From: Thermoplasmatota archaeon | Lineage (GTDB): Archaea; Thermoplasmatota; Penumbrarchaeia; Penumbrarchaeales; Penumbrarchaeaceae | NCBI GenBank assembly: GCA_965234725.1 | Contig: CBDDUX010000031.1 | Span: forward strand, 1 to 54,411 | Direction of reading: 5' to 3' | Length of the DNA stretch: 54,411 nucleotides | Shown here: positions 30,823 to 46,445 of the stretch, in pieces | Layout: the number at the start of each line of letters is the position of its first letter | How positions within the stretch are numbered: the stretch's first letter is position 1 | The notes under the pieces: generated by a model | What the model saw: only the letters and a program-made list of their open reading frames with translations | What the model was told of the DNA's origin: nothing | Databases searched by the model: none | Program-made: the position numbers and the translations under genes

Positions 30823-30898
30823 GCGGGTGTGATGTAGCCTGGTATCATTCTAGCTTGCCAAGCTAGTTACTCGGGTTCAAATCCCGGCACCCGCACCA
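30823..30898 (+). tRNA. tRNA-Gly (GCC), CCA encoded, no intron
   Basis: Acceptor stem GCGGGTG/CACCCGC, anticodon arm CTAGC-TTGCCAA-GCTAG, GGTTCAAATCC T loop, discriminator A plus CCA. TTTTAAAAA promoter-like element upstream. Confidence 0.96.
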
Positions 30899-31044
30899 TT
30901 TTTCTTTCGTCAATTATACATCGAAACGAAAAATGGTGCTCAAAAATGATTACACACGACAAAAAATGATTGAGAAAGATTTCATCCGTTTTTTGTCTCA
31001 GGGGTAGAACTTAGATATCGTTAATTTCAAGACAGTTCTACCCC

Positions 31045-31063
31045 TCCCGGCACCCGCACCATT
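31045..31063 (+). repeat. 19-bp direct repeat of the tRNA-Gly 3' end (att-like)
   Basis: TCCCGGCACCCGCACCATT is identical to 30882-30900 and lies 163 bp downstream. Confidence 0.9.
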
Positions 31064-31181
31064 ACTTCAAATTTTTCTTTAATCTATGTAATGGTGCTTG
31101 GATTGACGTGAGGGGTTTGAAGGAAGTGAAATGGGGTTTGGGGGGAGAAACTCATTTGTTCCAAAGATCATATACTCCCTC

Positions 31182-42500: not shown

Positions 42501-42572
42501 AGAATGAGGTTAAATACCCGGTAGGTTGGTTATTTGTGGCGCGTAAAAGGCCCACCAATGGAGGTAACAAAA

Positions 42573-43238
42573 ATGAATACAAGAACGATGATCTTCGGTG
42601 GCTCAGCTGCTCTGGCCCTTCTCATAGGGGTCGCATTCTTTGCGGCCGCTACCGAGACCAATGATGGCACGATGTTGGGAGAAACAGCCCTTGGAGACAT
42701 GCTTCGCAAGGGTATGGACAATGGAAAAGGTGAGGTCGAACGTGCCATGGATGGAGAATGTGACCCTGAAGACGCAGAGCAGGCACGTGAGCAGGAGAAG
42801 CTCCAGGATGGCAGCTGTGGTGACGGTCCTTCAGAGGACGGCTCAGGTGAGATGAAGCAGGAGCAATCTCAGCAGAAGTCCGAAGGTTCAGATGCACCCG
42901 AGGATGCAGATCAGGCACGTGAGCAGGAGAAGCTCCAGGATGGCAGCTGTGGTGACGGTCCTTCAGAGGACGGCTCAGGTGAGATGAAGCAGGAGCAGTC
43001 CCAGCAGAAGTCCGAAGGTTCAGATGCACCCGAGGATGCGGAACAGACCCGTGAAAGGGAGCAGTTGAAAGACGGTTCCTGTGACGATGACGCCTCGGAA
43101 GATGAGGTTGTTTTCATATCATCCACAAGTGATGCCGGGGACGAATCAAAGGATAGGTCCGGCATTCAGCAGCACGACAGGGACAGGGACCAGGACAACG
43201 GCGGAACAGGTCCTGAATACAGGAACGGCGCAGTTTGA
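42573..43238 (+). CDS. Secreted acidic low-complexity protein with 44-aa DGSC repeats
   Basis: GGAGGT SD, signal peptide/TM, about 2.5 copies of PEDAEQAREQEKLQDGSCGDGPSEDGSGEMKQEQSQQKSEGSDA. Confidence 0.75.
   Translation: MNTRTMIFGGSAALALLIGVAFFAAATETNDGTMLGETALGDMLRKGMDNGKGEVERAMDGECDPEDAEQAREQEKLQDGSCGDGPSEDGSGEMKQEQSQQKSEGSDAPEDADQAREQEKLQDGSCGDGPSEDGSGEMKQEQSQQKSEGSDAPEDAEQTREREQLKDGSCDDDASEDEVVFISSTSDAGDESKDRSGIQQHDRDRDQDNGGTGPEYRNGAV
42765..43088 (+). repeat. 132-bp intragenic tandem repeat (about 2.5 copies)
   Basis: CAGGCACGTGAGCAGGAGAAGCTCC at 42780 and 42912. Copies 1 and 2 are near-identical; the third is partial and diverged. Confidence 0.92.
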
Positions 43239-43249
43239 ACATCGATTTT

Positions 43250-43284
43250 ATGCCGGATGGTCCGAATTGGACCTCCGGCATTTT
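43250..43284 (+). terminator. GC-rich hairpin after the repeat-protein gene
   Basis: ATGCCGGA-T-GGTCC / GGACC-TCCGGCAT stem followed by TTT, just after the stop codon. Confidence 0.55.
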
Positions 43285-43331
43285 GTATGAAAATTCATGA
43301 AAGCGGGTTGTAATCCTTTTTCATACACCCG

Positions 43332-43750
43332 CAAAGCAGTGTCTCTAATTGACGATCTGTTTTGACCTTGGAATTACTGAGATGATCTCAACATTATCTA
43401 ATTTCAAGGCACGCACAATGGTGTATGTCAGTGACGATCCATTGCTGCTGTGTGTCGAAATTACGAGTTATTAATACATTTGACGCGAGTAATTTACGAC
43501 ATTCCTATTTTAATAATCGGGTCTTGACATCATCGATGGCAAGGTCAGCATAAAACCGAAGCCGAAGGCTGTTTTCTGCAATGATTTCGAAGTCACATAA
43601 CTTATTTGATTGACGAGACCTTGAAATTGCTGAACCCTATCCAATCTCTCTGAATTTCAAGGCATGCACAATAGTGCTTTCAATTGACGCTCTATTGTTG
43701 CTATGGATCGAAATTCCGCATCATATCGAATTGACGAAAGGAATTTACGA
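43332..43750 (+). ncRNA. Candidate structured non-coding element: two diverged three-hairpin units (43366-43501, 43619-43750) plus an extra hairpin at 43332-43364
   Basis: Conserved stems with compensatory changes, conserved bulges and TTGACG loops. No ORF of 60 aa or more. G-U pairs favour the + strand. Confidence 0.55.
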
Positions 43751-43837
43751 GCTCCTTTGAAAAAGGAGTGACTTACGAAAAAACCCGCTTAACATTTTCA
43801 TCCTATGTTGTGAGCATTTAACTCTTGAGGGTTTTTT

Positions 43838-45130
43838 TTAATTTTCAACGAACTTGATACCTTTTTGTTTCAACCTTTCCAGGGCCGTAGTGTATACCTT
43901 GTGATGTGTGGGGATCTGAACCCCAGTGAAACCTTTCATTTCTCCCTTCAAGATCATTTCCACTCCGATCGCAGCCGGGAGCCCAACAGTCCTGGACATT
44001 GCAGAATCCCCTCCCGGGATTCCTTGATCGATCATTGTCGAGGTCAGGACCTTTTCAGTTCCATTTCTTTCTACCCTGAATTTGTGTTGAAGGATGATCA
44101 TATCCTTTTCACCCGGCTGGTAGGTCAACTTCTTGTTCAGAAGGTCCGAAAATGAGTCCATCATACTCTCGGTACTGCTCAATGGTTCATCCGAGAACAG
44201 GCCGAGCCAATCCCAATTGCTTATGGCTGTCATGTTGTTCTTAGTGTTTATGCTGGATAGAGCCCTTTCCTTAAGGTTTCCCTCTCCGGGGATGAGGCCC
44301 TCCATTAGCTGGTGGAAAGTTGCTGCTGTTGTGGGGGCTTCTTCCAGGATCCCGATATCATGAAGTCCTTTCCAGGTATCGCACCACCCTTTGTTCCTTA
44401 GTGTTCCCCTAAGGACGGTCCTGGACTCAGGGATCCCGTAGATATCCCCGTAGGGTACCGAATCCCTGTTGGGATAACCTTCGAATTTTCCCATGCCCGG
44501 TATGTCTATCATCTCATAGGTTCCGAAAAGCTCCTTTCCTGGAACATCTAGGACCTTTCCATCTCTCTTGAACCTTGCATTGTTCTTTGAGGCCAGAACG
44601 ACCCCCCTTGGACTCCAGGAGAACTTGTAACCCCATGGATTAGTATTTGCATCAGGAGCTGGGAGACCTCCGCAGTAGGAGATGAATTCTAGGACTTTAC
44701 CTCCATCTTTGTGTACCAGGTCGATCACCCTTTGAGCTTCCATGTGATCGATCCCGGGGTCCAAACCCATCTCGTTCATTATGAGGATTCCAGCGTCCTT
44801 TGCTGCTTTGTCATATCCCTTCATCTTCTCAGAGACGTAGGATGTGGTGACCATGGACCTGCCTTTCCTTAAACAGGCTTCAGCTACGAGATGATGACAG
44901 GTGTAAGGTAATAGTGAGACAGAGACATCGTTCTCATCCACCAGCTTATCCAGGTTGTTATCCCGGTTTATATCAAATCGGAGAGGTTGCCCTCCTCCCG
45001 AGCTTTTTGTGATCCTTTCCGCCTTTTCCAAGGTCCTGCTGGCAACGGTGACTTTGAACCCCGCTCCCACGAGGTGATCGACCAGCGGTCTGGCTACAAG
45101 CCCCGCTCCTAAAACAAGTACGCTTTTCAT
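43838..45130 (-). CDS. Saccharopine dehydrogenase (glutamate-forming; Lys9/AASS C-terminal type)
   Basis: VLGAG.VA.P, SLLPY..H, VTTSY, NEMGLDPGIDH, SYCGGLP, YKFSWSPRG, YPNRDS, RGTLR, SAMSRTVG. Confidence 0.92.
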   Translation of the reverse strand: MKSVLVLGAGLVARPLVDHLVGAGFKVTVASRTLEKAERITKSSGGGQPLRFDINRDNNLDKLVDENDVSVSLLPYTCHHLVAEACLRKGRSMVTTSYVSEKMKGYDKAAKDAGILIMNEMGLDPGIDHMEAQRVIDLVHKDGGKVLEFISYCGGLPAPDANTNPWGYKFSWSPRGVVLASKNNARFKRDGKVLDVPGKELFGTYEMIDIPGMGKFEGYPNRDSVPYGDIYGIPESRTVLRGTLRNKGWCDTWKGLHDIGILEEAPTTAATFHQLMEGLIPGEGNLKERALSSINTKNNMTAISNWDWLGLFSDEPLSSTESMMDSFSDLLNKKLTYQPGEKDMIILQHKFRVERNGTEKVLTSTMIDQGIPGGDSAMSRTVGLPAAIGVEMILKGEMKGFTGVQIPTHHKVYTTALERLKQKGIKFVEN

Positions 45131-45131
45131 A

Positions 45132-46445
45132 TTATATCTCCTGAAGTGCCTTTTCAAGATATCTGTAACCTTCTGTTAGTTCTCCCTTGTAGATGATTAT
45201 GGCTTTTCTGATGGGTTTGGGGACCTTAAGATCTTCGAATGAGACCGTGAGGTCCGCATTTGCAAGAGCTGGAAGGAACTCCTTGAGCTTGTCTCCAAAA
45301 TAATCGGATGATTCCTTCGGGATCTCGCATGGAAGATTGTCCACCGTCATCATAACGGGACCGGTTCCTTTCCAGCCAGGTATGGCAGAATCTTCCCATG
45401 GATCATATACATATAGAGGATCCTCAGGGGATGTGGCCTTGATCGTTGACTGGATGGCCCCGTTAATATCGCAAGATATATCCCCGATGACACGGAGCTT
45501 CGGGGATCGGTGGTCCTGGTAAAGCTCTTTGATCTGTTCCTTTGTAAGAAGTCTGGGATATTTCTCTTCCCAGTAGATGCAGTTCATCAGGACTGAGAGA
45601 TAAGGAATATACCGATTGAACTTGGACCTGTAACGTTCAGGGTTGTTGTAATAGTCCTGAAGATCGAACTTTCCCTCGGGATCGATTGGTTCGACCATGT
45701 CCCATTCGTTGAATATTACTTTGTAGATATTGGTCCCGGAATCCTTCCTCTTGTTCAGATCCTTTAGCTCTGCCGGGCTGACCTCTTTTACCGGGAGAAG
45801 ATCCAGTATCTCTTGTGCCCCCTTGGATACGTTACCGGAACCCGCGATCCCGATGACAAACGGTCTGATGGAATAGGGGATCCCGTAGGTTGTGATCATC
45901 CTTCCAACTGCCGAGATATGTTCCCTGATATTGGGGAGGTTACCGTACTCGTGCGCCTTCATTATCGAACTGAATGGATTTCTGACCCCTTCCCATTCCA
46001 GTCTCCGGCCGACGGTCCAAAGTGTGTCCACCATACCTGCAACGCCGGCATGCCATCCGAAGAATATCAGACGTCTACCCTGCTCATCGACGATCTTCTC
46101 ATAATCGATCAAGGTGCAGTGAATGTCCATCATCTTCTTGAGCATCCTCATGTTGTGCTTCTGTCCCTTGATGGTATGTGAGAAGAACATGTAACACATC
46201 TTCGGGATGAGCTCGTGGATAGGTACTTCCTTAATTCCCAGGGTGATATCCACCTCGTTCAGCTCTTCATCAATCCTAGCTCCGGCAGTCTCATAGTCCT
46301 CGGTAAGGAATGCCCTGAGATCAGAAGGCTGTACAGTGAACTTTACCTCATGGTCGTTTACAAGCCTCTGGACATGGTCCGGAGTTAGGGGGGCTCTTCT
46401 CTCCCATCTATTCTTGCTTTCCCGCCTGATCCCAATTCGGTTCAT
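45132..46445 (-). CDS. Lysine-2-oxoglutarate reductase (AASS N-terminal / LKR type)
   Basis: IGIRRE.KN.WERRAPLTP, FFSHTIKGQ..NM, LIDYEKI, FG..AG.AG, GSGNVSKGAQE, DISCD..G, DNLP.E.P. Confidence 0.9.
   Translation of the reverse strand: MNRIGIRRESKNRWERRAPLTPDHVQRLVNDHEVKFTVQPSDLRAFLTEDYETAGARIDEELNEVDITLGIKEVPIHELIPKMCYMFFSHTIKGQKHNMRMLKKMMDIHCTLIDYEKIVDEQGRRLIFFGWHAGVAGMVDTLWTVGRRLEWEGVRNPFSSIMKAHEYGNLPNIREHISAVGRMITTYGIPYSIRPFVIGIAGSGNVSKGAQEILDLLPVKEVSPAELKDLNKRKDSGTNIYKVIFNEWDMVEPIDPEGKFDLQDYYNNPERYRSKFNRYIPYLSVLMNCIYWEEKYPRLLTKEQIKELYQDHRSPKLRVIGDISCDINGAIQSTIKATSPEDPLYVYDPWEDSAIPGWKGTGPVMMTVDNLPCEIPKESSDYFGDKLKEFLPALANADLTVSFEDLKVPKPIRKAIIIYKGELTEGYRYLEKALQEI

Follow-up and report, generated by a model that had tools for sequence, protein, structure and literature searches.

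Positions 43285–43831 (+ strand) of the 54,411-nt window analysed here, a stretch of contig CBDDUX010000031.1 from a Thermoplasmatota archaeon, hold a composite element of about 547 nt, built from a non-coding repeat that is modular and dispersed, and not the single locus-specific array envisaged when the letters were read on their own. We put the probability at about 0.55 that this element is a structured, non-autonomous mobile repeat resembling MITEs (miniature inverted-repeat transposable elements), bacterial interspersed mosaic elements (BIMEs) or BOX elements, the hairpin loops of which would contact a trans-acting protein that serves propagation. Neither the Rfam families nor the transposases for which we searched account for the repeat.

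A loop motif in a modular and nested element

The sequence-only reading had noted a TTGACG motif recurring at the 3′ side of hairpin loops. All of its sites were confirmed on the + strand (TTGACG at 43349, 43480, 43610, 43684 and 43731, and TGACG at 43432), and the three 17-nt loops it quoted, at 43340–43356, 43423–43439 and 43675–43691, each have complementary arms on both sides. Five of the six motifs had been placed 2–3 nt ahead of a 3′ arm; in fact all six are so placed. The exception at 43610 was only apparent, because a nested unit of 149 nt has been inserted after the loop and has displaced the 3′ arm to 43768–43778; the intact hairpin around a motif of the 43610 type is visible in uninterrupted copies on contigs C63 and C69 of the same genome. 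At the genome-wide rate (1232 TTGACG sites on both strands of 3.54 Mb), 0.07 would be expected per 401 nt of single strand, and the probability of at least five is 1.3e-8. Over both strands of the whole window, TTGACG was observed 30 times against 19.65 ± 4.49 in shuffled sequences, a count that one shuffle in 100 reached.

The element starts GTATGAAAA and ends CTTGAGGG, is flanked by T4 and T8, and encodes no gene in cis (no open reading frame (ORF) of at least 60 aa). Comparison of copies resolved it into the modules L (hairpins SL1 and A), M, B, R (a hairpin with a T-run end) and H (an insertable unit). These are found piecewise on 12 other contigs of the genome, and are present or absent at identical points across C63, C69, C3 and C31. 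The C63 copy has the layout L-A-B-R; C69 also has M, C3 also has the unit H2 in the loop of B, and the window has M together with two nested units, H1 and H2.

All of the following features are on the + strand. The backbone opens with hairpin SL1 (43284–43327), which is its H0: the 10-nt arms TGTATGAAAA and TTTTCATACA are 100% complementary around a 24-nt loop, and the hairpin is kept in other genera with compensating changes (GTATGAAGA/TCTTCATAC). Backbone hairpin A (43328–43364) has the 5′ arm CCCGCAAAGCAG, the 17-nt loop TGTCTCTAATTGACGAT (TTGACG 43349) and the 3′ arm CTGTTTTG in an 8-bp stem, the base of which picks up again at 43517–43521, past nested unit H1, and is uninterrupted in C63 and C69. 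H1 (43365–43516) is composed of an H0 at 43366–43409, hairpins A and B at 43409–43499 (TGACG 43432, TTGACG 43480) and an AT-rich tail, and is missing at this point in C69. Module M (43517–43584), two short hairpins between backbone A and B, is present in C69, C38, C60 and C100 and not in C63 or C3. Backbone hairpin B (43585–43618; 5′ arm TCGAAGTCAC, loop ATAACTTATTTGATTGACGAGA with TTGACG 43610), intact in C63 and C69, is parted from its 3′ arm GTGACTTACGA (43768–43778, assigned by comparison with those two copies) by nested unit H2 (43619–43767, boundaries ±2 nt). H2 has an H0 at 43619–43662, hairpins A and B at 43662–43750 (TTGACG 43684 and 43731) and a tail hairpin, CTCCTTT-GAAA-AAGGAG; it is missing at this point in C63 and C69 and present in C3 at 98% identity, and H1 is its direct repeat at a spacing of 253 nt. 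Module R (43778–43839) closes the element with a hairpin, AAAAAACCC...GGGTTTTTT, around ATTTTCAT, which complements the SL1 5′ arm, and with the T8 end; a compensating CTC/GAG variant of it occurs in C26 and C100.

H1 lies within the 3′ strand of backbone hairpin A and H2 between the loop and 3′ arm of backbone B, while on contig C114 one unit is inserted between the 5′ arm and loop of another B hairpin. Units therefore nest at the stem/loop junctions of older units. A further interrupted copy was seen at C28:1–207 (− strand): within its hairpin A, an L+H copy gives way to unrelated sequence, which continues as far as the end of the contig and may be an insertion sequence at which the assembly broke.

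Freely covarying stems and conserved loops

A full unit consists of three hairpins, H0 followed by A and B, in about 135–150 nt. Hairpin A takes the form NNN-GCA-N6 / N6'-x-TGC-T-NNN' with a loop of 17 nt, and hairpin B the form TCGAA-N4-CG / N4'-TT-A-CGA with a loop of 21–23 nt. Both stems are bulged, and both the bulges and the nucleotides at the stem base (CGCA...TGCTG in A, TCGAA...TTACGA in B) are fixed. When 13 units from this genome were aligned with MAFFT, the consensus had 21 pairs, and compensatory changes were seen in 14. R1, a covariance model built on the A and B hairpins, found 16 strong copies in this genome as well as partial ones, with scores of 89.6 bits for H1 and 94.5 bits for H2. 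We then aligned 52 R1 matches from 35 sources, giving 51 distinct rows (alignment A2). Paired cells make up 96.1% of A2 and 21 of 21 pairs have changed on both sides, in an alignment that was fitted to the model structure and so favours pairing counts; the independent MAFFT result agrees with this covariation. None of 500 shuffles matched any of these measures, and slid controls paired at 20–46%. As for H0, an uninterrupted stem of at least 8 bp ends just before A in 34 of 44 distinct units, compared with 3 of 880 shuffled upstream sequences. Its median stem is 10 bp and its median loop 22.5 nt, and the stem differs by sub-family: CCTTGRAATT, TCTGGAAATT, GTATGAARA or arms rich in T-runs.

Both large loops carry the core A-W-Y-G-A-C-G, followed by 2–4 nt and then the 3′ arm. 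Among 43 distinct full-length units, the bases of loop A are retained at A22 in 41, G25 in 41, A26 in 41, C27 in 42, G28 in 42 and T30 in 37, and those of loop B at G72 in 41, A73 in 41, C74 in 43, G75 in 42, A78 in 41 and G79 in 41. GACG is thus kept in 41–43 of the 43 units in each of the two loops, so that the motif is conserved in homologous units, as had been anticipated; from this retention we define it as YGACG, of which TTGACG is the commonest form. The earlier suggestion that the basic module is ‘any stem plus a TTGACG loop’ was right about loop-defined hairpins on variable, covarying stems, but it overlooked the fixed bulges and base nucleotides, and the true unit is a module of three hairpins that belongs to a dispersed mobile repeat. 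That the loops are conserved while the stems covary freely speaks for a sequence-specific factor, probably a protein, that would read the loop in a folded single strand of DNA or RNA.

The strong support for the loop motif comes from these homologous units and not from naive genome-wide counts. Where stems of at least 8 bp are considered, 23 of the 1232 TTGACG sites (1.9%) lie at the 3′ side of a loop, against a mean of 0.7% and a maximum of 1.7% for 40 hexamers of the same composition, so the enrichment that had been predicted is present but modest. It disappears with stems of at least 6 bp, for which TTGACG (8.6%) does not differ from the control hexamers (7.1%, maximum 8.6%). Nor did motif discovery in hairpin loops recover the motif: in an unbiased 5-mer ranking over 794 perfect-stem hairpins, words containing GACG are not on top, and YGACG occurs in 11 loops. 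The most enriched words in these hairpins (loops of 14–26 nt) are GTTAA/TTAAC, CGTCG and CGGGC, which hints at further hairpin repeat families.

Non-Watson–Crick cells on the + strand comprise 31 G-U against 11 A-C (binomial p = 0.003, although the cells are not independent), a surplus that favours the YGACG strand as the one that folds. Folding energy cannot pick the strand, because both beat their shuffles (z = −3.9 for + and −4.6 for −). The G-U surplus and the strong covariation are also what would be seen if A and B were a functional non-coding RNA module, transcribed by read-through or from its own promoter and bound by a protein through YGACG, with mobility secondary. Such a module could serve in 3′-end protection, terminator reinforcement or protein titration, and the T-runs that follow hairpin B or module R would suit it. 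Against it, no conserved TATA-like box at a fixed distance was seen in H0 loops when judged by eye, and the T-run ahead of each unit should halt archaeal read-through. We regard functional RNA modules as the main rival reading, unlikely though to be taken seriously, and return to them where distribution and orientation bear on the matter.

Known RNA families offered little. With the whole window searched at the gathering score, Rfam matched only tRNA-Gly, and at E ≤ 10 the interval 43200–43900 gave four matches of 13.7–15.1 bits, far under the cut-offs. K-turn/K-loop, H/ACA, C/D box, hammerhead, bulge-helix-bulge and tRNA-like readings were judged by eye and dropped because their defining nucleotides are missing.

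Dispersal and insertion

All 17 units of this genome are intergenic. R1 matches were found in 20 of the 23 other genomes of the family (7 genera) and in the one genome of a second family (1/1, G028), with none in 36 further, more distant genomes of the phylum. Carriers within the class therefore number 22 of 37, namely 21 from family f1 (this genome included) and G028. Copy number ranges from 1 to about 54 per genome (51 in G001), the sites are not syntenic and contig ends hold many of the copies. In other genera, single copies follow the terminators of unrelated genes; G009 and G008 have one copy each, at unrelated sites, and no locus is common to all carriers, which is difficult to square with an RNA gene kept for a host function. 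A strict A+B pattern gave a single match in viral contigs, which R1 did not confirm, and 69 in metagenome contigs, of which R1 confirmed only 6 loci, none with a new context.

The element occupies an intergenic stretch of 600 nt between an ORF at 42534–43238 (+) and the saccharopine dehydrogenase gene at 43838–45157 (−), which form a convergent pair. The orthologous site of the sister species G004, in which the dehydrogenase gene is 90% identical, is empty: it reads hairpin, T10 and then the convergent gene end. The window has at this site a hairpin, ATTTT, the 547-nt element, T8 and the gene end. From this comparison, the element entered, or left, an oligo-T terminator. The left remnant of this oligo-T target is the ATTTT behind the hairpin GCCGGA...TCCGGC in the terminator of the upstream ORF (43252–43284, + strand), and the right remnant is the T8 of module R. 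G001 is empty at this site too, and G003 has only TTTTTTATGAAAATTCAATATTTTTTT, of which 11 nt (ATGAAAATTCA) match the element from its third base onward; going by this match, it may be a footprint of the element. At locus L053 (G002:C15), orthologous to window 43280–43840, the terminator is taken up by another non-coding element, about 330 nt long, which has L-type and R-type ends (GTATGAAGATTC ... CATGAAGATTTTTT) but a different interior.

With respect to orientation, 9 of 13 loci match the upstream ORF (p = 0.13), or 10 of 13 when an upstream tRNA is counted (p = 0.046). Co-orientation with the upstream ORF fits a T-run target on the same strand and is not significant alone. It would also be expected of modules transcribed by read-through, for which the bias is weak.

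Arrays show a related pattern at the end of a protein-coding gene. On contig C60 (18000–18400) an array borders directly on a convergent gene's stop codon, and the last 10 nt of that gene together with the next 13 nt are repeated after each unit; the array at the orthologous locus of G003 (C10:65900–66700) likewise repeats the last 10 + 13 nt of the convergent gene. Two B hairpins within such an array have identical arms and differing loops.

Units linked to tRNA and 5S rRNA genes

The window also holds a related unit. It lies at 30899–31062 on the − strand, immediately after tRNA-Gly(GCC) (30823–30898, +), and has A-type and B-type hairpins with TTAACG and TTGACG loops. On the strand opposite the tRNA, an A-type hairpin (loop TGTCTTGAAATTAACGAT...) comes first, then a middle hairpin, and last a B-type hairpin (loop ...AATTGACGAAA) whose stem is the tRNA 3′ end and T-run paired with their inverted copy. 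The unit ends in a 17-nt copy of the tRNA-Gly 3′ end, and the hairpin GCACCATTTTTC/GAAAAATGGTGC takes in the tRNA's own 3′ end. A YGACG loop on stems of unrelated sequence, as in these tRNA-linked units, is the best support for the idea of a loop-defined module.

The pattern is not confined to this gene. Direct copies of the last 12 nt (1–4 of them, 80–760 nt downstream) accompany 9 of 40 tRNA genes and bound tandem units of 140–215 nt, and a perfect hairpin of at least 8 bp that includes the gene's own 3′ end was found for 5 of 34 tRNAs against 11 of 2000 random sites. The arrays lie at window 30823–31150 and on contigs C5, C14, C20, C26, C28, C63, C76 and C109; every unit closes with a copied tRNA 3′ part, from the T-loop onward, and these copies tend to be trailed by their own inverted copy, the pair forming a hairpin. 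The tRNA-Arg array has four near-identical 143-nt units and one that is longer. In G028, from the other family, a like arrangement is present at two tRNA-Gly genes and is followed by H0-A-B units. The tRNA-Gly(GCC) array differs in content and unit number among three species (G000, G004 and G003). Units also stand in sense orientation after tRNA-Met in this genome, G012, G007 and G020 (three genera) and after 5S rRNA in G010 and G021. In both settings the RNA gene's end and T-run fall within the 5′ arm of H0, and the 3′ arm copies them exactly in inverted form.

Sense copies placed straight behind tRNA-Met (four genomes) or 5S rRNA (two) would be natural for the functional RNA modules considered above, as would the one locus that is co-oriented with its upstream tRNA; the units linked to tRNA-Gly, however, bear the motif antisense to the tRNA.

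The same units raise the question of whether target choice lies in the fold itself. Each would carry an inverted copy (T′) of its neighbour, be it a tRNA 3′ end with its T-run, a 5S rRNA end or a terminator, and these could be miniature integrative elements with a folded attachment site, in which a host tyrosine recombinase would join the target duplex rebuilt by H0 to the chromosome and the YGACG hairpins would be accessory binding sites. The direct 12-nt copies downstream of 9 of 40 tRNAs, the excess of own-3′-end hairpins, the tRNA CCA end or 5S rRNA end within the H0 5′ arm in several genera, the varying number of tRNA-Gly(GCC) units among three species and the 7 tyrosine recombinases of the genome are all in keeping with this. 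At the window locus, however, both arms of H0 arrived with the insert, the empty site having no copy of either, and H1 and H2 show no target duplication beyond 2 nt. The recombinases, moreover, are off the contigs with tRNA arrays, their nearest co-occurrence with A+B being about 30 kb away (on C3), and tandem copies could also result from unequal crossing-over. We consider an attachment site of this kind quite improbable. The boldest version, which we hold to be improbable, is that these are protein-less miniature integrative elements that choose their targets by complementarity: the inverted copy in the folded unit (of a tRNA 3′ end with its T-run, a 5S end or an arm of an older unit) would rebuild the target or pair with it, and unit and target would be joined by a host enzyme that is conserved and docks on the YGACG loops.

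Search for an enzyme or partner gene

The sequence-only reading had suggested that the hairpins might be repeated cleavage sites for an HUH-type enzyme. Cleavage or recognition by a hairpin-specific Y1-class enzyme, either IS200/IS605 TnpA or a repetitive extragenic palindrome (REP)-associated tyrosine transposase (RAYT), would agree with the strand-specific hairpins, the lack of terminal inverted repeats and the insertions without clear target duplication at stem/loop junctions. For this class the suggestion did not hold up. Y1_Tnp (PF01797) was not found in this genome (97.65% complete), nor in any of the 22 carriers (21 of family f1 and G028), whereas 6 of 15 non-carriers have it; the positive-control genomes were detected, and among HUH families the search covered Y1_Tnp alone. 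These results contradict the Y1 reading, which we regard as very improbable. Since the Y1 transposase that drives the bacterial analogues was not found in carriers, another mechanism must act.

An IS200/IS605-derived palindrome-associated transposable element was rejected for the same want of Y1_Tnp in this genome, and the three matches to the TnpB zinc-ribbon domain are weak, none of them beside a repeat copy: no single stretch exceeds 21.7 bits, where the cut-off is 26.3, and the match at C3:134819 attains 27.9 bits only when summed with its frame neighbours, about 27 kb from that contig's copy. A casposon or other Cas1-driven insertion was set aside as well; of the 37 genomes in the class 7 have Cas1, G028 and most carriers are without it, and it does not track the element. 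The two Cas1 genes of this genome lie at C106:688–1533 and C59:27–896, in frames of 565 aa and 408 aa, the latter at the start of a contig. Retroelements, whether dependent on a group II intron or not, fared no better: RVT_1 occurs in 10 of 37 genomes of the class, in neither G001 (51 copies) nor G028, and does not track the element either. The only reverse transcriptase (RT) of this genome is a group II intron RT-maturase (RVT_1 and GIIM, with no endonuclease domain) at C47:14574–15980 (locus L145, 3074–4480), in the spacer that separates the genes for a diphthamide synthase and a peptidase M29. None of the 7 tyrosine recombinases is on a contig with a tRNA-linked array, and the single one on a contig that bears A+B (C3) is about 30 kb from the copy. 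In short, none of Y1_Tnp, TnpB zinc-ribbon, Cas1, RVT_1 and the tyrosine recombinases adjoins the repeats or tracks their distribution. A partner ORF was sought among the 152 ORFs at 20 array loci of G001, where the sole recurrent cluster lies at the arrays' own coordinates and is for that reason taken as spurious.

A proposed mode of propagation

We propose that the + (YGACG) strand would act single-stranded and folded, the large loops offering YGACG to a sequence-specific protein supplied in trans, and that this contact would be required for copying and insertion of the unit and so would serve propagation and not a host function. The stems may drift and compensate because pairing alone would be needed. 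Insertion targets would lie beside T-runs, at the 3′ ends of tRNA or 5S rRNA genes and in hairpins of older copies. At the locus studied, a backbone of SL1/H0, A, M, B and R lies in the oligo-T terminator common to two convergent genes, with H1 and H2 nested in it at stem/loop junctions.

Several observations weigh against a mobile repeat of this kind. The naive genome-wide loop enrichment of TTGACG is weak, the pairing counts of A2 are favoured by its fit to the model, and both strands fold better than shuffles. The T-run often found after hairpin B is as in a small RNA gene, units placed in sense after tRNA-Met in three genera could fit a host function, and so too would the persistence of the unit over two families with no enzyme encoded in cis. 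Target duplication is unreadable at the window locus, where T10 at the empty site faces T4 + T8 around the element, all within a T-run, and amounts to at most 2 ambiguous nt for the nested H1 and H2. The ends, GTATGAAAA... and ...CTTGAGGG, form no terminal inverted repeats, inverted matches between L and R being internal only. No autonomous copy was found in five genomes of the genus, in which the L and R ends are always less than 600 nt apart, and the five enzyme families tried yielded no trans-acting protein.

Neighbouring genes and expression

The product of the upstream ORF (42534–43238, +) is an acidic, cysteine-containing repeat protein with no Pfam match; the gene has internal DNA repeats of about 120 nt, and their number varies among the four sister genomes. 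Metatranscriptome contigs from four RNA runs (small shares) cover 42600–42974, the 5′ part of this ORF, and 44323–44398; the repeat itself is uncovered, which is uninformative either way. DNA runs that contain the stretch are labelled marine sediment.

Comparison with known systems

In bacteria, REP, BIME and BOX are familiar examples of structured repeats without proteins of their own, which shape terminators, mRNA stability and genome rearrangement. To our knowledge, comparable structured repeat families have hardly been described in archaea, and a literature search judged on titles and abstracts returned no description of such repeats for this uncultured sediment lineage. The clear anatomy of the present family (three hairpins, a loop word and fixed bulges) makes folded oligonucleotides a handle with which to fish out a partner protein, and the arrays that duplicate tRNA 3′ ends, both direct and inverted, may reveal how such elements choose targets. 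On the practical side, the repeats break assemblies, with many copies at contig ends, and generate spurious ORFs.

The element works like a bacterial REP/BIME, BOX or MITE, yet it has no RAYT, no terminal inverted repeats and no autonomous relative. With the REP/BIME sequences of enterobacteria and REPINs it shares short extragenic hairpins, mosaic modules, positions at convergent genes and terminators, and a copy number that varies among relatives. REP/BIME sequences are mobilised in trans, and by analogy we suggest that the archaeal repeat may be too. It differs in its archaeal host, in that a RAYT partner was not found in any carrier searched, and in its AT-rich, bulged and variable stems, the loop rather than the stem being conserved. 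REP-associated transposases are the subject of PMC2817692, as its title and abstract indicate.

BOX elements of pneumococci (boxA-boxB(n)-boxC) likewise have a left module, variable internal modules and a right module, with strong predicted structure, no coding capacity and no known transposase. The archaeal repeat is unrelated to them in sequence, and unlike them has internal units nested in hairpins, a conserved loop motif and lone units beside tRNA and 5S rRNA genes. A CsrB-type sponge, which the sequence-only reading had invoked, is one transcribed gene devoted to the purpose, rich in loop motifs and with a partner protein that is known; the archaeal repeat is dispersed and non-syntenic, with 1 to about 54 copies per genome and two motifs per unit, which speaks against a sponge without dismissing it. 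To integron attC sites and the attP hairpin of CTX phage the likeness is one of logic only: structure is kept while stem sequence varies, extrahelical bases are fixed and one strand is active. No attC R'/R'' core (GTTRRRY) was noticed by eye in the copies, with no attC model or IntI profile run, and cassettes of the archaeal kind would be non-coding.

Like MITEs (reviewed in PMC10969869 and surveyed in PMC11602168), the repeat is small, non-autonomous, intergenic and multi-copy, with filled and empty sites; unlike them, it has no terminal inverted repeats and no readable target duplication, and no related autonomous insertion sequence was found. PMC9897764 describes an archaeal integrative element that targets a tRNA gene, a 21-kb island with 44-bp direct repeats. 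Direct repeats of the tRNA 3′ part around inserted DNA are common to that island and our tRNA-linked units, which by comparison with the island as described there are only 140–215 nt long, non-coding and tandem, and carry an extra inverted copy of the tRNA end. If target choice by complementarity did prove to be at work, these units would constitute a non-coding analogue, in archaea, of folded-att or guide-directed insertion, and their mode of targeting would explain why tRNA 3′ ends recur in tandem arrays.

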